Shown here one piece after another: positions 1-40,116 of a stretch of DNA of 40,116 nucleotides. The notes under the pieces were generated by a model. That model searched no databases. It was not told the DNA's origin and saw only the letters and a program-made list of their open reading frames with translations. The translations under genes were made by a program, and so were the position numbers. The stretch is from a virus. Location: positions 1 to 40,116 of the IMG/VR virus record IMGVR_UViG_3300045988_114451. One strand, written 5' to 3'. The number at the start of each line of letters is the position of its first letter. Position 1 is the stretch's first letter.

Positions 1-147
1 TAGCCCGAATTGGATGCTGCACCCTTATAGCCCGAATTGGATGCTGCACCCTTATTGCCCGAATTGGATGCTGCACCCTTATTGCCCGAATTGGATGCTG
101 CACCCTTATTGCCCGAATTGGATGCTGCACCCTTATTGCCCGAATTT
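1..147 (-). repeat. 27-nt coding tandem repeat (about 5 units), same family as 39398..40116.
   Basis: The unit cccgaattggatgctgcacc plus a 7-nt variable segment repeats with period 27. In the coding frame this reads G-A-A-S-N-S-G-x-x. Confidence 0.95.
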
Positions 148-470
148 TTCAATTCCTTTTCAATCTTAGAAAAACGGAACTCAACGCAAGCCTTTATAAT
201 CTTATCAATGCCCAACCTCGCTCCGATGGCTATTTTCTTTGCCGCGACTTTCGTGTCGTTTCTCCTTTCATTGCTCACTCCGTCAAGTTCGACTTCGTGA
301 AATTCGGAATTTGCCGGGTCATAATACTCGAATATATCGAGAGGGTCTTCGCAGGCGTGGAAACCACTTTCACAAAGTTTCACCTCTCCATCGTGTTCGT
401 ATGTCTTGCCCTCCTCAAACTGGAAGCCCCGGCAAGTCATGTCTTTATTAAATCCCTTATATGCTTTCAT
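1..470 (-). CDS. N-terminal part of a large repeat protein. A globular N-domain (resembles the family I recall as DUF7666; name from memory) is followed by 9-aa tandem repeats. The ORF runs off the left edge and continues at 40116..39181.
   Basis: ATG at comp(468..470). Manual translation gives MKAYKGFNKDMTCRGFQFEEGKTYEHDGEVKLCESGFHACEDPLDIFEYYDPANSEFHEVELDGVSNERRNDTKVAAKKIAIGARLGIDKIIKACVEFRFSKIEKELKNSGNKGAASNSGNKGAASNSG with no stop down to position 1. It is absent from the ORF track because it is open at the edge. Confidence 0.8.
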   Translation of the reverse strand, partial: MKAYKGFNKDMTCRGFQFEEGKTYEHDGEVKLCESGFHACEDPLDIFEYYDPANSEFHEVELDGVSNERRNDTKVAAKKIAIGARLGIDKIIKACVEFRFSKIEKELKNSGNKGAASNSGNKGAASNSGNKGAASNSGNKGAASNSGYKGAASNSG

Positions 471-481
471 ATCTGTTTATT

Positions 482-922
482 TTATCGTCCTGTACTACCA
501 TAGCCGCCTTTTCCCCTATCGGTCTCCGAGAATTCTTCTGCCTCCTCAAATTCAATCTCAGGATAGGGCAAGATTATCATTTGGCAAATGCGGTCTCCTG
601 AATGATAACCGCCATCATTTTGCAGAAACTCCCTTGCATCGGTAATGATGAACTTTGCCGTTACCTCTCCGCGATAGTTGCTGTCTATCACTCCCACGGA
701 GTTGTGCAGTATAAGCGGTTTGTTGGCAATCGAACTTCTCGGGAATATAAGTCCCGCGTGCCCCTCAGGTATCTCGAAGGCAATACCTGTATGACATAGG
801 AGTTCCTGCTTTGCCCAGTCTATCGAAGTCTCTGTGCAATACAGGTCAAAACCCGCGTCCGTGGCGTGCGCCCTCTTCGGCACAACCGCATTTTCGCTTA
901 ATCTTTTAATTCTTACTTTCAT
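482..922 (-). CDS. dut: dUTP diphosphatase (trimeric dUTPase).
   Basis: Motifs AGFDL, GVIDSNYRGEV and C-terminal RGKGGYGSTGR. The MKVRIKRL start at 922 abuts the stop of the upstream gene at 927. The ORF track's earlier start at 973 overlaps that gene. Confidence 0.9.
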   Translation of the reverse strand: MKVRIKRLSENAVVPKRAHATDAGFDLYCTETSIDWAKQELLCHTGIAFEIPEGHAGLIFPRSSIANKPLILHNSVGVIDSNYRGEVTAKFIITDAREFLQNDGGYHSGDRICQMIILPYPEIEFEEAEEFSETDRGKGGYGSTGR

Positions 923-926
923 AATT

Positions 927-1310
927 CTATCGTTTCTTTGTGTTTTCAAAATAAAACTTTCCGTCCCATTCATGTTCTTCCAAAATGCCGTATTTTATTG
1001 CCAATTTGGTAGCGAATGTGTGTTTGTAATCAAGTTCTTTAAGGAGTTTTTTACGGAAGCCATCAACCGTTAACATCCCTTTGTAGAAATTGCAAGCACG
1101 GCAAGATGGGTTGTAATTGTCTATAACATCCTTCCCAATGCCGCCTAAATGTTTCTCCATTCGCACCTCGTTGTTTCGGCATTTTGGAACGATGTGGTCA
1201 ACCTGCATATCTTTATAATCTATCTCACAACCGCAATATGCACAATGTCCATTATACTTGTTATAGACTTGTTGCCGTGTTTCCTTTGTCATATTATTTC
1301 TCCAGTTCAA
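927..1310 (-). CDS. HNH endonuclease.
   Basis: HCAYCG...VDHIVPK...NYNPSCRACNFYKG fits the HNH/Cys-box pattern. Confidence 0.8.
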   Translation of the reverse strand: MNWRNNMTKETRQQVYNKYNGHCAYCGCEIDYKDMQVDHIVPKCRNNEVRMEKHLGGIGKDVIDNYNPSCRACNFYKGMLTVDGFRKKLLKELDYKHTFATKLAIKYGILEEHEWDGKFYFENTKKR

Positions 1311-2796: not shown

Positions 2797-3606
2797 TTAT
2801 TGAAATAAATTTGGTTGAATAACCGCCAATACCTTCTCTTTAGCCAGCTTATAAAAGTCCTTCTTAATCTCAAAGCCATACGCCTTGCGCCCACAATTCG
2901 CAGCCGCCAACAATGTCGTTCCGCTGCCCGCGCAAGGGTCTATCACGACATCGCCCTTGTCCGAAAACAACTCTATCAACCGCTCCAATAATTTCACAGG
3001 CTTCTGAGTGGGATGACATTTCGGCGTATCATTATCCACAACCCAATCCATACAGTTAAATACCATTCGTCCCTCGTTGTTGAATTTAGGGAGCATGTCC
3101 CGGTAGAGTATCAATCCATATTCGCAATTCCCCACGACCTTCATATTAGCCTTCAATACCTGCGCAGAGAAGTTCTTGCGGAAAACTAAAGGGATATATC
3201 TCTCAAGTCCATATCTGCGTCCCAAATCAATGTAATAGTGCATCTGCTCGAAAGGACAGAAGAGTATCATACAGGCTGCCCCCCCCTTGCGTTTGGAGCC
3301 TGCCATAGGCACATCGCCCTCTTCCCCCGTTTCGTCCTTTTTCAACGGCTTATCCTTACGAAGCATCTGTGAACAGAAGTGCATAAACTCCGCAGGACGG
3401 AAATCCTTGTCCGTGTCAAAGAATTGCTTTCCCGCCTTGTCGCTCTCACCTTTCTTGTTGTCGCCGTCTATGTACCACGCAGGATTGCTTGCATAAGCGT
3501 TTTCTCCGAGGTTATAGGGCACATCTGCTATGATAAGCTGTGCTTTCGGTATTCCGTAACTCTTGAAGTTCTGGAAATGGTCATTAAACAACTCTATATT
3601 TTTCAT
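2797..3606 (-). CDS. DNA N6-adenine or N4-cytosine methyltransferase, beta class (motif IV precedes motif I).
   Basis: IIADVPYNLG is a DPPY-type motif IV near the N-terminus. VIDPCAGSGTTLLAA is the FxGxG SAM motif near the C-terminus. The gene contains an in-frame G8 tract at comp(3279..3286). Confidence 0.85.
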   Translation of the reverse strand: MKNIELFNDHFQNFKSYGIPKAQLIIADVPYNLGENAYASNPAWYIDGDNKKGESDKAGKQFFDTDKDFRPAEFMHFCSQMLRKDKPLKKDETGEEGDVPMAGSKRKGGAACMILFCPFEQMHYYIDLGRRYGLERYIPLVFRKNFSAQVLKANMKVVGNCEYGLILYRDMLPKFNNEGRMVFNCMDWVVDNDTPKCHPTQKPVKLLERLIELFSDKGDVVIDPCAGSGTTLLAAANCGRKAYGFEIKKDFYKLAKEKVLAVIQPNLFQ

Positions 3607-5259: not shown

Positions 5260-6186
5260 TCAGAAAAGGGTGGGTTTCCAAATGTCATTCATCCATTTGC
5301 GGTGCACGAACAAACCCTCCGTAACATTCCCGTCCGCTCCGAACTGGTTTGCGAGCACATTCACGTCCCTTGCCCAGATGCGCACGAAATCATCGGGCAT
5401 CGAGTACTCGGATATGTATATCGGGAAGTCGGCATTCCGTGCCCACTCATGGAAGGCGTCGTGGTCAAATGTGCCCGTGCAGTAACCGTTTGCGGACTTG
5501 TATGGAGGGTCACAATATACTGTCGCGTCTTTGGTAATGGGTATCTCGCGGTAATCAGCCGCATACCTCTCCAAACTCTCCAACCTCTGCAAACTCTCCA
5601 AACCCTCCTTGCGTCCGCCCTTGAAGTGGCAAGATTTATACAGCGGATTGTTCATAATCATCTCCCTCGTTCCGTGCGCCTTCAGCCAAGACGTAATCGC
5701 ACGCCCTATCGCAACCCTCCGCTCGCTCCGGTCGTCAATGTCGCTCAAAACCCACCGACAGGCACCGCACACCTCCGGACAGAGTTCCCCAAGCGGCTCG
5801 AAATCATCGAACACGACGGCGTAATGCAGGGCACGCTTGTACGGCTCCATCTCACGCCCATAAAGATATGTCTTCGTGTCGTTCCCGAAACTCCAGCAGC
5901 AGCGCACATAAGCGTCAGTGTCCTTCAGCGCAACGAAGTCATCGCGGCTTATCCAGCGATTTTCGTTCCGATACTTCCCGCTAATTGCGTTGACGAACAG
6001 TTCGGGCATATCACCCTGAATGTCGTTAATGACATACCTGTCCCACCGCCCCGCGACCATTGCCGCGTGCGTCACGGCACAGCCGCCCGCGAAAAGGTCA
6101 TACAACGCGGCTCCCGAGGGAAGATGCTCCACTATGTCCGCGGCTATCCGTGACTTGCTGCCCCTGTATGGTAATCCGTACTTCAT
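5260..6186 (-). CDS. dam: DNA adenine methyltransferase, Dam-like (alpha class).
   Basis: YRGSKSRIA near the N-terminus, LYDLFAGGCAV (FxGxG), then VYCDPPYKS (DPPY). Confidence 0.85.
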   Translation of the reverse strand: MKYGLPYRGSKSRIAADIVEHLPSGAALYDLFAGGCAVTHAAMVAGRWDRYVINDIQGDMPELFVNAISGKYRNENRWISRDDFVALKDTDAYVRCCWSFGNDTKTYLYGREMEPYKRALHYAVVFDDFEPLGELCPEVCGACRWVLSDIDDRSERRVAIGRAITSWLKAHGTREMIMNNPLYKSCHFKGGRKEGLESLQRLESLERYAADYREIPITKDATVYCDPPYKSANGYCTGTFDHDAFHEWARNADFPIYISEYSMPDDFVRIWARDVNVLANQFGADGNVTEGLFVHRKWMNDIWKPTLF

Positions 6187-7689: not shown

Positions 7690-8676
7690 TTAAAATGGAA
7701 AATCGTTTTCTTCCTTGTATCTTTCATATTCGGCCTTCTTGCGTTCCTCCTCCGCAATCCGGAGCCGTTCCCTGCGCTCCCATTCGGCTTTCTTGCGCTC
7801 ATAATCCTCGTGTTCCCTCTGTCGCCTTTCCTCCGCCTCCTGACGCCCTTTCTCCGCGTTCCGCTGCCGTTCCGCCTCCTGTGCCTTCCATTCGCGGGTC
7901 TTGCGCTCATCCTCGCGTTTCTCATAGTCCTTCTTCTGCTCGTAATAGGACTTTTCCGCGTCGGGGTGAATGTCCTGCCAACCCCGCGAGACGGCTCTGT
8001 CGATGAACGCGCGTGCACGCTCTATGTCCCCGCCAGACTCGCGTTTCAGCCTGTTTGCGAAAATTGAGAGCGACTTCTGACATTTGAGGGGCTTCCTGAT
8101 GTCAATCTTGTAGTCGAGCCAGTATGCAATCAGCTCCCTCCAGTCATCCTCGGGTATGGTATTGACGAAGTCATCCGCTAATTTCTTGAAATCAGCCTTC
8201 GGCTTTTTGGGGGACTCCCCCTTTAGGGGGATTATAGGGGGTAATATGTTTTTATCTGTGTTTATTATCTGTTGTTTATTATCTGTATCATATAATAATA
8301 TACATTGTCCGTTTTGGGACAATGGACTGTCCTGTTCGGGACAATGTGTTGTCCCATTTGGTAAAATGCACCTTCCCATTAGGTCGTCATTGACGGAATA
8401 CCACAGAGTGCGGTCGCGCTTGTCCTCGTTGTAGTTTCCTGTCTGTACCGCCCCTTGCTCTATAAGACTTTGAAGGATTCGGTATATCTGTTTGTTTGAC
8501 CAATACGGGAATAGCCCTGAAAACGCCTTGCGGCTATTGTAAGTCCATACGCGCCCGTCATAGATATGCTTGTTGTTCTCGTAGTTTTTCTGAAGCCAGT
8601 AAAGAATATTGGTCAATATTATAGCCTCATTGCAGCCATATTTTTGAGCGAGTTCAATATCGAAAAAATGATACAT
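7690..8676 (-). CDS. Replication organiser/initiator-like protein. It has an N-terminal winged HTH (RepA_N/DnaD-like), a long K/E/R-rich helical tail, and a C-terminal ...ENDFPF.
   Basis: NEAIILTNILYWLQ...WTYNSRKAFSGLFPYWSNKQIYRILQSLIEQGAV fits the pattern. The MYHFFDIE start at 8676 is preferred because a hairpin plus U-run occupies 8681..8733. Confidence 0.55.
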   Translation of the reverse strand: MYHFFDIELAQKYGCNEAIILTNILYWLQKNYENNKHIYDGRVWTYNSRKAFSGLFPYWSNKQIYRILQSLIEQGAVQTGNYNEDKRDRTLWYSVNDDLMGRCILPNGTTHCPEQDSPLSQNGQCILLYDTDNKQQIINTDKNILPPIIPLKGESPKKPKADFKKLADDFVNTIPEDDWRELIAYWLDYKIDIRKPLKCQKSLSIFANRLKRESGGDIERARAFIDRAVSRGWQDIHPDAEKSYYEQKKDYEKREDERKTREWKAQEAERQRNAEKGRQEAEERRQREHEDYERKKAEWERRERLRIAEEERKKAEYERYKEENDFPF

Positions 8677-8680
8677 AAGC

Positions 8681-8733
8681 AAAATAAAAAAAAGTAATTG
8701 TCCGGTGTAAGGTCGCTCTCTTACACCAGACAA
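8681..8733 (-). terminator. Hairpin plus U-run immediately upstream of the replication-organiser start (terminator or attenuator).
   Basis: ttgtccggtgtaag (8698..8711) pairs with cttacaccagacaa (8720..8733). The minus strand follows with TTACTTTTTTTTATTTT. Confidence 0.6.
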
Positions 8734-12088: not shown

Positions 12089-12847
12089 TTATACTACAAT
12101 TTGTAGTACATTACGATTTATCGGATTTTCTCGCCCAAGGTTATCTGCATACCCCCATATACAACCAGCTGACTGCTGTATCTTTCCTGTTATAGCTTTT
12201 ATTATATTACTTGGATGAGCTTTGGATATTTTGGCTGCGTCCCGAATACTTCTAAAAGTAGTATAAGTGCCATCTGAAATACTTATGCACCAAACAGGCC
12301 TTCTGATAGTATCGTGATAATGACAATTTTCCCCAATATAACTAAATGTAAATCCTTTGGCAGAACCTTTTCTGTTACGGCAGATTGTAGCTATCCAGCT
12401 CTTCTGAATGCCGGTTGAATTCGCTGCATCTGTTATACTCGGATATGTAGCTACAAAAGTTCCATCTAACATATATTGATTTACTGGCAGACTTATAGTT
12501 TTACGCCTCCTTATCATTGCTGTCCCATAATTTACATTATACTTTACGGTACACCACTCAAGATTTTTGACGTAATTATTACTTGGATTTTCATCTTTGT
12601 GATTGACAACTGTATAATTATCTGGATTAGATATAAATGCAGTTGCAACCAATCTATGCACCCATACCTTATGAGTCTTTCCTTTATGGGTTAAATGCAC
12701 AGAAACATAACCTCTATTATCTTTAAATAATAGAAGATTTTTTGTTTTACCAGTCTTTTTATAGTTCAAACTTCGAACTTCCCCAATATCACTAACTTCA
12801 TATTTGCCGCCCCAGCCGACAATTGGTTTCCAAGTAACATTCTGCAT
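12089..12847 (-). mobile_element. Free-standing HNH homing endonuclease with a NUMOD4-like N-terminus and NUMOD1/IENR-like DNA-binding repeats.
   Basis: WKPIVGWGGKYEVSDIGEVRS, then VHRLVATAFISNP...VNHKDENPSNNYVKNLEW, then two SI.DAA... helices. The segment is visibly more AT-rich than its flanks. Confidence 0.8.
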
Positions 12848-27963: not shown

Positions 27964-29055
27964 CTATGCCTCGGTCTTCGTGCTGACAGTCCCGACAACG
28001 GTCACAGGGGTCGCATAGTTCGTGCCCTTGTCTATCGTCGCCTTGATGACAGGATTAGGGTTGCCCTCCATGTCGTTGTTGTAGGCTACCACGAAAGCCA
28101 CGTCAAGACTGAATCCGTAGAAGTCCTTGACCGCGCAGGTGAGGTCTGCGGATGCCGCGCCCGCAATCTGGCTCTGGTCGCCCACAGCCTGATAGTGGTG
28201 AAGTCCCACAGGCATTCCGAGTCCGAGGTCAACCTGAAGCCACTCGTGTCCCACCTTTGTCTGTGCCTGTCTTGCGCTCTCGCGGTCAAGACGGGTCACG
28301 ATTCCGACATTTCCTTCCTCCACCGCGTAGAGAGTGCCGTACTTGCCCTCGGCGTTGGCGATGTTGTTGGTGAAGTGGAATACCTTGTCGGCATACTCAA
28401 GCTGCCTGTTCACGTCGTTGTAGAAGCCGTGCTGCGCGAGCTTGCGCACGAGCGCGTCAACGCCGCCGTTGCCGACGATGTGCACCTGACCCTCGTAGTC
28501 GTTAGCCACCATCATCGTTGCCACATCCTCAAGGATGTCCTCACGCTGATTCCAGTCCGCCGGAATGGCGTTGCCCGCCGGGGTGTAGATGAGCGTGTCG
28601 TTGAACTTCTGTGTCTTGTTCGCCTCAAGCGCAGCCACCGCAAGCTGGTCAAGCTTGTTCGCGAGTGCCTTGGTTATCTTCGCCATCTTGCGGTTGAAGT
28701 CGGCCTCATAGCCAATCTCGTTGTTCGCATAGAGAGACGGAACGATGGTGAATCCCACCGAAAGGGTAGAGAAGGCAAGCGTGTAAAGCGCGGATGTGTT
28801 CTCGTTGTCCGCCACCACGCAGGAGCGGCTCGTCGCCACGGTCACGGTGTCGGTGTCGAACACCGGAACCTGAACTGTGTTCCCCATGGAGCCGAGTGCC
28901 TTCGCCCTCAGTTCGGGTGTGATGATTGAATCCGGAGCCTCGGTCTGTCTCACGAAAAGGTCGAGAGCACCATAACGGCTCGGACGGAGCGTGTTCTTGC
29001 TGAATCTCGGGTCAGCAATACGCCAGTTCTGTAGTCTTGTTGCAAGTAAGCTCAT
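27964..29055 (-). CDS. Major capsid protein.
   Basis: 363 aa, following the scaffold-like gene and followed by a strong terminator. Confidence 0.65.
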   Translation of the reverse strand: MSLLATRLQNWRIADPRFSKNTLRPSRYGALDLFVRQTEAPDSIITPELRAKALGSMGNTVQVPVFDTDTVTVATSRSCVVADNENTSALYTLAFSTLSVGFTIVPSLYANNEIGYEADFNRKMAKITKALANKLDQLAVAALEANKTQKFNDTLIYTPAGNAIPADWNQREDILEDVATMMVANDYEGQVHIVGNGGVDALVRKLAQHGFYNDVNRQLEYADKVFHFTNNIANAEGKYGTLYAVEEGNVGIVTRLDRESARQAQTKVGHEWLQVDLGLGMPVGLHHYQAVGDQSQIAGAASADLTCAVKDFYGFSLDVAFVVAYNNDMEGNPNPVIKATIDKGTNYATPVTVVGTVSTKTEA

Positions 29056-36857: not shown

Positions 36858-37145
36858 CTATTTTGCGCCCTCTGTCTGGTCGTCCGGCTGGTTGCCCGCC
36901 TGGTCGCTCCGTTGCGTCCTGAATGCACGCACGGCGGCGAAATAGGCGCGGAACGCCTGAACCAACGGAACGAGCAGCAGCAGCAGCGGGGCAAATGTCC
37001 ACCCCCACGGAATTATTGACAATTTACACCCCTTCAGGACAATGAAAGGAACGCACAACAACACGGGAGGAAGAACGACGGCAGCCACACCGCGCCAAAT
37101 CATGCGGCGGCGGCGGCGGTTGATTTTGTCCAGCTGTTGCCGCAT
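36858..37145 (-). CDS. Small membrane protein with an Arg-rich N-terminus.
   Basis: The MRQQLDKINRRRRRMIW start at 37145 is followed by two hydrophobic segments. The ORF track's longer form (to 37313) reads through the iteron array, producing recurring KNS tripeptides, and is probably not translated. Confidence 0.5.
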   Translation of the reverse strand: MRQQLDKINRRRRRMIWRGVAAVVLPPVLLCVPFIVLKGCKLSIIPWGWTFAPLLLLLVPLVQAFRAYFAAVRAFRTQRSDQAGNQPDDQTEGAK

Positions 37146-37236
37146 GTCCTCGATGCTCTGCCCGGCGTCGGTGGTTGAGTCGTCCGGGCGTTCCGATGTC
37201 CGGGACTCCCGGTCGGTGGTTGCGTCCGGGGCGGTG

Positions 37237-37436
37237 CGTGAATTTTTAGCCGCGCGGGATTGACGTGAATTTTTAGGCTCCGGCGATGCCTGTGAATTTT
37301 TGGAGCGAAACATGGTACGTGAATTTTTAGCGGGCGAGCCGCCGCGTGAATTTTTGGTCGGGGCGACGCGCCGTGAATTTTTTACAAAGTGTCCGCCGCG
37401 TGAATTTTCAGCCTGTACGGACGGACGTGAATTTTC
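37237..37436. repeat. Iteron array: eight copies of (C/T)GTGAATTTT(T) at exactly 27-bp spacing with non-conserved GC-rich spacers.
   Basis: Core starts at 37237, 37264, 37291, 37318, 37345, 37372, 37399 and 37426. A ninth copy is at 37782..37792. Confidence 0.9.
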
Positions 37437-38849: not shown

Positions 38850-39145
38850 TGATAATCTTTGTGACGATGATTTCGGGCATTATCTTTTCAGTGTTGTATT
38901 CATCAACATATTTTCGGTATTCAAGTCGTCCGATTATGTGAACCCACGCCCCTTTTTCTATCTTCGTCAGGTCAACTTCATCTGAAGAGTATGCGTGACA
39001 GTTATGCCACGATGTTTCTGCCGTGTGACATCCGCCGCTGTTGTAAACCTGTATCGTGCAGAGTTGAAATCTTGCGTATTCCGTACCCCCCGATGACTTT
39101 CTTTAATACCCTACCTATACGCCCTGCAAATTCTATTTGATTCAT
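38833..39145 (-). pseudogene. ssb: OB-fold single-stranded DNA-binding protein gene interrupted by a 1-nt frameshift at a G6 tract. Not in the ORF track.
   Basis: ATG at 39145. Dropping one G at comp(39086..39091) gives MNQIEFAGRIGRVLKKVIGGTEYARFQLCTIQVYNSGGCHTAETSWHNCHAYSSDEVDLTKIEKGAWVHIIGRLEYRKYVDEYNTEKIMPEIIVTKIINDEED, which fits the SSB pattern (GRLG..., W-H, KG..V.I.GRL, E.IV). Confidence 0.7.
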
Positions 39146-39180
39146 ATATTCCTCTTTCATAACGGTTGATTTTTCGTTTT

Positions 39181-40116
39181 TTATTGCGGATTCTGTAAAA
39201 TTTCTACTAAAACTCCATTTACCAGCTTATACCAAGTATCTGCCTTGACCTGTTCTCCGTCCACTTTGAATGCCTTAATATCCTTTATGGGATAGCCCGC
39301 GCCATCCCATTTATCGCGCTCGGCAAGCACAATCCAAGTTCCCAATGCTCCGCGTGCTTTGCTATCATAACCCACACTCATTGCAATAGAGTGTTTGCCC
39401 GATGTTTCCGCTGCACCATTGTCGCCCGAATTGGATGCTGCACCATAATCGCCCGAATTGGATGCTGCACCATAATAGCCCGAATTGGATGCTGCACCAT
39501 AATAGCCCGAATTGGATGCTGCACCCTTATAGCCCGAATTGGATGCTGCACCCTTATAGCCCGAATTGGATGCTGCACCCTTGTCGCCCGAATTGGATGC
39601 TGCACCATAATCGCCCGAATTGGATGCTACACCATAATAGCCCGAATTGGATGCTGCACCATAATAGCCCGAATTGGATGCTACACCCCTATAGCCCGAA
39701 TTGGATGCTGCACCATAATCGCCCGAATTGGATGCTGCACCATAATCGCCCGAATTGGATGCTACACCCTTATAGCCCGAATTGGATGCTGCACCCTTAT
39801 AGCCCGAATTGGATGCTGCACCCTTATCGCCCGAATTGGATGCTGCACCATTGTCGCCCGAATTGGATGCTGCACCATAATCGCCCGAATTGGATGCTGC
39901 ACCATAATCGCCCGAATTGGATGCTGCACCCTTATAGCCCGAATTGGATGCTGCACCATAATTGCCCGAATTGGATGCTGCACCCTTATTGCCCGAATTG
40001 GATGCTGCACCATTGTCGCCCGAATTGGATGCTGCACCATTGTCGCCCGAATTGGATGCTACACCATAATAGCCCGAATTGGATGCTGCACCCTTATAGC
40101 CCGAATTGGATGCTGC
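39181..40116 (-). CDS. C-terminal part of the repeat protein begun at 470..1: about 27 nine-residue repeats plus a roughly 70-aa C-terminal domain.
   Basis: The frame of the listed 66-aa ORF (39181..39381) stays open upstream through ...NGAAETSGKHSIAMSVGYDS and reads GAASNSG[YDN][KYNR] across the whole array to the window edge. Confidence 0.8.
   Translation of the reverse strand, partial: AASNSGYKGAASNSGYYGVASNSGDNGAASNSGDNGAASNSGNKGAASNSGNYGAASNSGYKGAASNSGDYGAASNSGDYGAASNSGDNGAASNSGDKGAASNSGYKGAASNSGYKGVASNSGDYGAASNSGDYGAASNSGYRGVASNSGYYGAASNSGYYGVASNSGDYGAASNSGDKGAASNSGYKGAASNSGYKGAASNSGYYGAASNSGYYGAASNSGDYGAASNSGDNGAAETSGKHSIAMSVGYDSKARGALGTWIVLAERDKWDGAGYPIKDIKAFKVDGEQVKADTWYKLVNGVLVEILQNPQ
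39398..40116 (-). repeat. 27-nt coding tandem repeat array (about 26.6 units).
   Basis: An invariant 20-nt core cccgaattggatgctgcacc (a few units have gctacacc) alternates with a 7-nt variable segment: cttatag, cttattg, ataatcg, ataatag, attgtcg, cttgtcg, cctatag, cttatcg or ataattg. Confidence 0.95.

Follow-up and report, generated by a model that had tools for sequence, protein, structure and literature searches.

A nine-residue repeat gene of the DUF7666 family, with two variable residues per unit, spans the ends of a 40-kb virus sequence

The virus record IMGVR_UViG_3300045988_114451 was analysed over positions 1 to 40,116 (the whole of this 40,116-nucleotide (nt) stretch is called the window), and both of its ends were found to lie within one minus-strand gene. 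The encoded protein is at least 452 amino acids (aa) long and has no hydrophobic leader. A DUF7666 domain at its N-terminus and a small domain at its C-terminus enclose at least 29 tandem nine-residue units, G-A-A-S-N-S-G-x-x, whose variation is concentrated in the last two residues (x-x). With this protein, a catalogued though uncharacterised family (DUF7666, PHROG 4433) gains a new member. The three-part architecture and the mode of repeat evolution set out below, taken together, are held with high confidence, and the biological role of the array is proposed in more guarded terms.

A gene cut at both ends of the window

The minus-strand frame of a 66-aa open reading frame (ORF), whose product forms the C-terminal end of the gene and is encoded on further assemblies too, is open from 40116 to 39184 for 311 sense codons and closes with the stop codon TAA at 39181-39183. 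From the ATG at 470 on the same strand, which has an in-frame stop three codons upstream, 156 codons run into the array units and the frame exits the window's left edge. Prefix and suffix of the window are identical for exactly 20 nt and for exactly 47 nt, and either join keeps the frame, giving proteins of 461 and 452 aa, respectively. The first-pass annotation had read both frames as open to the edges and had joined them into one ORF of about 450-460 aa, and this agrees with the reconstruction. Only the GAASNSG frame links the DUF7666 domain with the C-terminal domain, and the other ORFs listed across the array (MVQHPIRAI..., MPELDAAPL...), rightly dismissed in the annotation as wrong frames, are in different frames. 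The 20/47-nt "terminal repeat" of the window is merely array sequence. The parts of the gene are as follows, where P0006 is a close relative with a structural model and L006 is a second, independent assembly of the same phage.

192..470, minus strand: start codon (470-468) and DUF7666 N-terminal domain, residues 1-93 (Pfam PF24703)
132..191, minus strand: linker between N-domain and array, residues 94-113, a helix and then ...KELKNSGNK (P0006 model)
1..131, minus strand: left-edge part of the array, four full units (NK NK NK YK) plus 23 nt, exiting the edge
39418..40116, minus strand: right-edge part of the array, 24 nt plus 25 full units G-A/V-A-S-N-S-G-x-x
39506..39532, minus strand: one-unit stretch corresponding to a 100-N gap in L006, with unit order and number provisional (L006 alignment)
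39184..39417, minus strand: three degenerate units (GAAETSGKH, SIAMSVGYD, SKARGALGT) and C-terminal beta domain (...WIVLAERDKWDG...DTWYKLVNGVLVEILQNPQ) (phrog_27197, P0006 model)
39181..39183, minus strand: stop codon TAA

The contiguity of the two halves was confirmed on longer, related scaffolds. In L008 (94 kb) and L009 (72 kb), whose N-domain differs from that of the window at 3 of 330 nt, the gene is internal to the scaffold, directly after the dUTPase gene, and the small ORF that comes next (MKKIKFDVMLGDRWQC...) is the one found at this place in the window; the dUTPase neighbour is also present in a further contig, L046. The gene is intact between the same neighbours in L008 and L009, and the window is therefore a circular or permuted phage genome of ~40 kb whose linearisation point falls inside the gene. 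Frame breaks within the array were also looked for, and the arrays proved uninterrupted in five finished cultured-phage genomes and in the isolate Eubacterium album LFL-14. The 21-nt repeat core had zero exact matches in IMG/VR, cultured phages gave no megablast match to 12 kb of window sequence, and GTDB representative genomes held no close relative (best identity 63-66%).

The number of units in the window is a lower bound only, because three assemblies of this phage disagree inside the array. L006 (ENA scaffold_680, 40,225 nt) is near-identical to the window, from which it differs at 2 of 3352 nt downstream of the array, and carries its 100-N gap inside the array at the place of window positions 39506-39532; its pre-gap sequence matches the window down to 39506 and its post-gap sequence from 39532 on. 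L046 (39,686 nt, from a different sample) likewise ends in the array, and its unit order, NK NK NK YK DY DY YR YY YY DY, differs from that of the window. Three YY units were found in L007 where the window has two, and the arrays of L008 and L009 contain N gaps too. Among the GTDB loci encoding the N-domain (L013-L045), 16 of 33 run off the contig end inside the array, and several cultured-phage records begin or end in a homologous array. The copy number had been suspected to be unreliable, and these gaps, breaks and differing unit orders show it directly. Such an array truncates or splits gene calls and ends contigs. It can also give rise to false "direct terminal repeats", on the strength of which phage genomes are then called complete.

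Residues 1-93 match DUF7666 (PF24703) with E=8.9e-37 and 125.9 bits against a cutoff of 27, over profile positions 1-94 of 95, so that the domain named in the first-pass annotation was the right one. All family-invariant residues (K5, G6, F7, C13, G21, Y24, C33, G36, F37, H38, A39, P43, and Y50) and the near-invariant C40 are present. Since C13, C33, H38, and C40 are invariant or nearly so among 79 homologues, the alignment suggests a putative metal site at this Cys3-His cluster. The whole protein matches phrog_4433 (E=8e-142) and its C-terminal 96 residues match phrog_27197 (E=1.9e-46), both of which have their function listed as unknown, and it has the layout of these PHROGs: the N-domain, units of 8 or 9 residues ending in [ST]-G-x-x, and a C-terminal beta domain that closes with ...DTWY.L..G..VE.

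The family search yielded 4,903 clusters (50% identity) at E<1e-3 and 1,105 at E<=1e-10, some of them compositional collagen hits, from phages of Proteobacteria, Firmicutes, Bacteroidota, and Actinobacteria. Most metagenomic relatives are ~197 aa long with 2-3 units, and the window array (at least 29 units) is among the longest seen; the Eubacterium album isolate (L034) carries an intact 451-aa copy, also with at least 29 units. The tblastn search of cultured phages matched 177 phage records, 115 of them Rheinheimera phages, and the actinobacterial isolates with the family include Sinomonas and Microbacterium. The arrangement of N-domain, repeat and C-domain was shared by Pseudomonas, Salmonella, and Blautia phages, by Actinobacteria, and by many metagenome-assembled genomes. 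The earlier description of a widespread phage protein family holds. Similar repeats follow N-domains below the DUF7666 threshold in P0141, P0199, P0259, and P0134. NCBIfam gave sub-threshold matches only, and the N-domain DNA of the Salmonella phage ES18 had no match in complete E. coli genomes. Family members carry labels such as "c-type lectin precursor", "flagellar hook-length control protein", and "collagen-like protein" in other records, and in Vibrio phage 1.185.O (MG592551.1, positions 28018-28674) a homologous array is annotated as CRISPR spacers. The family-wide "repeat-variable diresidue", the assembly breakage driven by the array and the resulting mis-annotations appear to be undescribed so far.

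Variation within and between arrays

By Tandem Repeats Finder the period is 27 nt, and the stretch 39410-40116 holds 26.2 copies and 3-146 another 5.3. The core GGTGCAGCATCCAATTCGGGC, which is 21 nt long rather than the 20 nt given earlier, occurred 30 times with at most one mismatch, always on the minus strand and always inside the array, where shuffled sequences gave an expectation of 0.00; no copy was found elsewhere in the window. Unit statistics were calculated from the 29 full 27-nt units of the 47-nt join, all encoding G-A-A-S-N-S-G-x-x, in keeping with the roughly 30 copies first estimated. Across these units 21 of 27 columns do not vary at all, among them every one of the seven third-codon positions of the core, so that the near-identity first noticed does extend to synonymous sites. 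The variable columns are 5, 22, 24, 25, 26, and 27, and five of these six fall within one 6-nt block (P=4e-4). Variation had been described as confined to codons 8 and 9, and this holds for all columns except column 5, where C/T changes A to V at unit position 2 in 4 of 29 units (GVASNSG). The most frequent dipeptides were YK and DY (six units each) and YY (five), followed by NK and DN (four each), DK (two), and NY and YR (one each). The nine types of x-x hexamer need at least ~7-9 substitutions, and zero changes were found at ~200 synonymous core sites. G, S, A, N, and Y make up 85% of the array, and there is no Pro anywhere in its 261 residues.

Arrays were also extracted from five finished cultured-phage genomes, among which that of ES18 was Sanger-sequenced:

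Pseudomonas phage YA3: 27 units, core SAASNTG, dipeptides NR, YQ, DY, NQ
Pseudomonas phage phi2: 15 units, core SAASNTG, dipeptides NR, YQ, DY
Salmonella phage ES18 (Sanger): 10 units, core SAATNTG, dipeptides NW, DQ, YQ
Salmonella phage SEN22: 21 units, core SAATNTG, dipeptides YC, DC, DR, DW, NR, NW, NL
Blautia phage Montmirail: 15 units, core GASSNTG, dipeptides DR, DW, YR, YW, NC, NW

The core peptide is uniform in all five arrays, and the only variable columns are 22, 25, 26, and 27, together with one synonymous core site (column 6) in ES18. With the 6-nt block defined in the window taken as given, the probability of such clustering was 8.5e-4 in YA3, 8.5e-4 in SEN22, 0.025 in ES18, and 6.8e-3 in Montmirail. 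The wider family was represented by 86 proteins with less than 50% identity and at least five units each. In these, the mean within-array modal fraction at unit positions 1 to 7 was 0.94, 0.76, 0.92, 0.82, 0.93, 0.94, and 1.0, respectively, compared with 0.46 at position 8 and 0.48 at position 9. Position 8 was occupied mainly by D (36%), Y (21%), and N (14%), and position 9 by R (27%), Y (18%), and Q (16%), then S, W, C, H, and N. Because the same columns vary in five cultured phages and in 86 divergent members, the pattern is a property of the family and not an assembly artefact. The comparison of x-x dipeptides among related phages proposed at the outset found positions 8 and 9 diverse within arrays throughout the family.

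Close relatives differ at these sites as well. L008 shares the core of the window and 99% of its N-domain nucleotides, and uses the dipeptides DC and NC, which are absent from the window. ES18 and SEN22 have the core in common and flanks that are 92-94% identical, and the only dipeptide in common is NW. Judged from these alignments, the x-x sites turn over fast. A uniform core combined with unit number and order that differ even among near-identical phages would be the product of in-register 27-nt slippage or unequal recombination. That changes in x-x are more numerous than synonymous ones in the core suggests selection for diversity, or a local mutational bias, on top of rapid homogenisation. 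Concerted evolution or slippage had been put forward from the window alone, and it fits the arrays compared here, in which every phage keeps a 21-nt core of its own unchanged and variation falls in the same four columns. In a laboratory evolution of Serratia symbiotica CWBI-GFP, a 54-bp (2 x 27) in-frame deletion arose in the 1413-nt gene "ydhT_1" (PMC12505973), at chromosome position 782,372 inside a mitomycin-inducible prophage region (PMC12505973, Table 2). This deletion fits unit slippage, with "ydhT_1" probably a member of the family that lost two units.

Predicted fold, putative role and alternatives

Structural information was obtained from P0006 (196 aa, two units), which was modelled by AlphaFold2 with a 79-sequence alignment at a mean predicted local distance difference test score (pLDDT) of 87. 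Its head (residues 1-102) is predicted as all-beta plus one helix (residues 88-102) with a pLDDT of about 95, and low pLDDT follows at 105-115. Strands VAET, IAIS, KARG, and WIVLAER start at residues 124, 133, 142, and 150, respectively (pLDDT 84-94), and the first three, which occupy unit positions 2-5 of the three degenerate units, follow one another at intervals of exactly 9 residues. Diverged arrays such as that of P0135 have V or I at unit position 2. The 9-residue strand spacing, the V or I at position 2, and the YdhT-like units described below would fit a unit of one short strand and one turn, with x-x in the turn. The probable solenoid of the first-pass annotation is thereby supported indirectly, through degenerate units that are strands exactly 9 residues apart; its "per turn" is conjectural.

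Foldseek of the P0006 model against the PDB found no resembling structure (best E=0.68), and sequence and profile searches of PDB sequences returned chance or compositional matches only, e.g., CyRPA (E=0.35) and the Spt5 C-terminal repeat. The latter arose from the P0135 units, which resemble the fission-yeast Spt5 C-terminal nonapeptide TPAWNSGSK (PDB 8qsz_Y, E=6e-7), a match that is probably compositional. Among predicted viral structures, the head recurs in other DUF7666 proteins and is fused to ankyrin repeats in giant viruses. It also occurs in a Rheinheimera phage protein labelled "Pentapeptide" (BFVD), and this label suggests that the head is there paired with a different repeat type.

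The gene is inferred from its position to be early and non-structural, and its product not to be part of the virion. In the window, it lies far from the block that runs from terminase to tape-measure protein. The early-left (PL) operon of ES18 contains the homologue gp53, flanked by the N-like antiterminator and cIII/kil, and the SEN22 homologue is between N/sieB and cIII. The homologues in YA3 and phi2 are downstream of the repressor on the same strand, and that of Montmirail is among replication genes.

The protein consists, in order, of a DUF7666 head with the Cys3-His cluster, a helix, at least 29 units, three degenerate units, and a small C-terminal beta domain. In the explanation proposed here, each unit would form a short strand (A-A-S-N) and a turn (S-G-x-x-G), and the array a repetitive beta rod of adjustable length on which the x-x pairs line up as a surface ladder. 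Head and tail domains would be constant modules, and the ladder a fast-evolving binding surface under diversifying pressure. The x-x alphabet is restricted, with mostly D, Y, and N at position 8 and mostly R, K, Q, Y, W, C, and S at position 9. Given the early accessory positions of the gene, the protein would be early and cytoplasmic, and it may act in host takeover or counter-defence by binding a component of the host or of a defence system. The explanation as a whole is given about an even chance, and the functional class alone (an early host-takeover or counter-defence binder) is put forward as a tentative assignment.

Several results weigh against this explanation. The repeat fold itself was not obtained: the two true units of P0006 have a pLDDT of 45-54, and AlphaFold2 on the joined 452-aa protein without an alignment gave a mean pLDDT of 34, poor even in the N-domain, so that this single-sequence model is uninformative on the repeat fold. 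Models of such low confidence leave room for a disordered array. The dipeptide order, searched for a clue to turn length or units per turn, has no 2- or 3-unit periodicity, and units of 8 residues (GAATAGxx, GAANAGxx, SALTGGxx) occur in some lineages. Homogenisation at the nucleotide level, and not positive selection, could account for part of the excess of x-x changes. Gene position is a weak guide to function. The PADLOC anti-phage defence models matched 0 families, a literature search found no paper mentioning DUF7666 or PF24703, and no experiment or publication bearing on the function of the protein was found.

One alternative is a disordered, low-complexity "sticker and spacer" linker, in which Y/W/R/K would be stickers and G/A/S/N spacers, the array would serve as a flexible spacer or in self-association or condensates, and x-x would be unconstrained. 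The composition of the array, the low pLDDT of the true units, their likeness to the disordered Spt5 nonapeptide, and a unit length that can be either 8 or 9 residues are all in its favour. However, position 8 is D, Y, or N in 71% across the 86 divergent arrays, which is not free variation, and x-x changes exceed synonymous changes. Diverged arrays and YdhT also show strand-like alternating hydrophobic residues, and the degenerate units model as confident strands. A disordered linker is considered unlikely, although it is the strongest of the competing readings. A (pro)phage exclusion or abortive-infection sensor, whose variable surface would recognise proteins of competing phages, is somewhat less likely still. 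The gene adjoins sieB in SEN22, within the N-to-cIII interval that houses exclusion genes in lambdoid phages, and the family is present in many prophages, but there was no PADLOC match and no effector-type domain was detected with Pfam. The ES18 gene is, moreover, downstream of the PL promoter and nutL and should therefore be silent in the lysogen.

A virion fibre or collagen-like adhesin would explain a Pfam Collagen match of 62.5 bits against a cutoff of 27.2, weak tail-fibre PHROG and Scl/Lcl NCBIfam matches over the repeats, and the database records in which relatives are called "collagen-like". Gly, however, occupies two of three triplet-initial positions here and one of three in the SAASNTG and SAATNTG homologues, Pro is missing, the NCBIfam scores are far under their cutoffs, and the gene is always found apart from the structural module, among early or replication genes, which makes this reading very improbable. 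Least probable of all, to the point of being negligible, is an assembly artefact or non-coding repeat such as a CRISPR-like array or iterons. Both window ends lie within the repeat, other assemblies gap or break here, and the Vibrio phage record carries its CRISPR label. Against this stand a peptide motif that is kept across phyla while nucleotide cores differ, arrays that continue the reading frame from one conserved domain to the other in finished genomes (the Sanger-sequenced ES18 among them), and a core without copies outside the array.

The nearest known proteins are the DUF7666 relatives themselves: ES18 gp53, YA3 QDB70960, Montmirail WAK79228, and SEN22_35 have the same N-domain, 9-residue units, C-domain, early position, and variable columns, and differ in their cores (SAASNTG, SAATNTG, or GASSNTG compared with GAASNSG in the window). 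The YdhT family (NF007410) resembles them in part, as the repeat and C-domain of ES18 gp53 and of the YA3 protein match its C-terminal 160 residues with E=3e-13 and 3e-19, respectively, and E. coli YdhT has at least 13 diverged 9-residue units, xxSRIAxxG. YdhT, in contrast, lacks DUF7666 and is built of units with hydrophobic I/V, and its gene belongs to the chromosomal ydhYVWXUT operon. Membership in the YdhT family was rejected, as ES18 gp53 and YA3 reach 49.8 and 69.5 bits against a 300-bit cutoff and the window protein has no match at E<0.01.

A likeness to rIIB was seen in the P0006 model, which matches several RIIB-annotated proteins (Foldseek E=8e-5 to 7e-4, template modelling score about 0.4). 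The C-terminal domain of T4 rIIB (PF26926) and DUF7666 both carry C-x2-G-[FL]-H-x-C (C-x2-G-L-H-x-C in T4), and both are early phage proteins. The rIIB proteins, however, have no repeat array, and the hhalign alignment with T4 rIIB is confined to the 17-residue motif (E=0.05, probability 1%), so that this link is a lead only.

Further candidates were considered and set aside. The RTX nonapeptide beta-roll, GGxGxDxUx with a calcium-binding Asp, shares the 9-residue period, the richness in Gly, and the alternation of strand and turn, but no register of GAASNSGxx puts G1, G2, G4, and D6 in the right places, and there is neither a conserved calcium Asp nor a secretion signal in a protein that would be cytoplasmic and phage-early. 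The collagen-like proteins Scl1/Scl2 and Lcl are likewise Gly-rich, with a 3-residue sub-period and cross-matches between hidden Markov models, whereas the window protein is without Gly at every third residue, Pro, an LPXTG anchor, or a signal peptide, and its context is non-structural. The collagen triple helix (PF01391) was rejected because G-A-A/S-N-S/G-x-x has Ser at one triplet-initial position and no Pro; the collagen and tail-fibre PHROG matches reflect composition. The array is also unlikely to be the target of a diversity-generating retroelement, because there is no template copy of the core outside the array, the substitutions are not adenine-specific (C/T, and G/T/C at columns 25-27), and a scan of 29 ORFs, a subset of those in the window, yielded no reverse transcriptase.

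The pattern of variation recalls the TAL effectors. Their units are helical hairpins of 33-35 residues that read DNA at one base per repeat, and nucleotide-uniform repeats varying at two residues are the signature behind the TAL effector code. Shared features are near-identical tandem repeats, two variable adjacent residues with a small alphabet, reshuffling by recombination, and breaks in short-read assemblies. The window units are, however, 9 residues long and probably strand-turn, there is no homology, and the likeness lies in the pattern of sequence variation only. It is conceivable, at rather long odds, that the x-x dipeptides are a recognition code in which one unit contacts one unit of a linear ligand such as single-stranded DNA, RNA, or a repetitive host polymer; slippage and point changes at four nucleotides per unit would then let phages re-programme specificity. 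A nucleic-acid ligand would fit, because D/N/Y/H and R/K/Q/Y/W match residues that bond base edges or stack on bases, and because the gene is beside SSB and recombination genes. If true, such a code would be a beta-strand analogue of the TAL effector, PUF, or PPR codes. The diresidue signature here marks an early phage protein encoded in the counter-defence/exclusion slot of lambdoid phages, which makes the protein a tractable candidate for an arms-race interface; ES18, SEN22, and YA3 are culturable.

Neighbouring genes and other features of the window

The minus-strand gene order in the window is terminase (34880-33366), portal, capsid, tape-measure protein (24353-21342), tail genes, and replication initiator (8733-7690), and continues with three DNA methyltransferases, HNH, dUTPase, the repeat gene, SSB, and small ORFs. 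The two genes that flank the repeat gene are as follows.

482..973, minus strand: dUTPase gene, directly upstream, with its stop codon 11 nt ahead of the ATG at 470 (Pfam)
38850..39160, minus strand: SSB gene, immediately downstream, frame-split at a run of six G (Pfam on the repaired product)

The dUTPase matched its Pfam model with E=1e-25. The SSB frames split at the six-G run ("atcggggggtacgg", near 39100), and the repaired product matched Pfam SSB with E=2.5e-11 over positions 1-101 of 104; either the homopolymer was misread in sequencing or the frameshift is real. A terminator scan between the repeat gene and SSB gave 0 sites.

Two other groups of short repeats were observed. Within the replication-initiator ORF (7690-8733), three 14-nt direct repeats (TGTTTATTATCTGT) and two TTGTCC-N6-GGGACAA palindromes occur at 8247-8354, and this layout resembles a lambda-type origin embedded in the initiator gene. 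An intergenic stretch at 37318-37382, upstream of the ORF at 36858-37313, has CGTGAATTTTT in three copies with GC-rich spacers of ~16 nt between them, and may be an operator or regulatory array. The three DNA methyltransferase ORFs and two HNH endonucleases are found at 927-1310, 1784-2302, 2797-3606, 5260-6186, and 12089-12847; one HNH overlaps the dUTPase start and the other is of the NUMOD/HNH_3 homing type.

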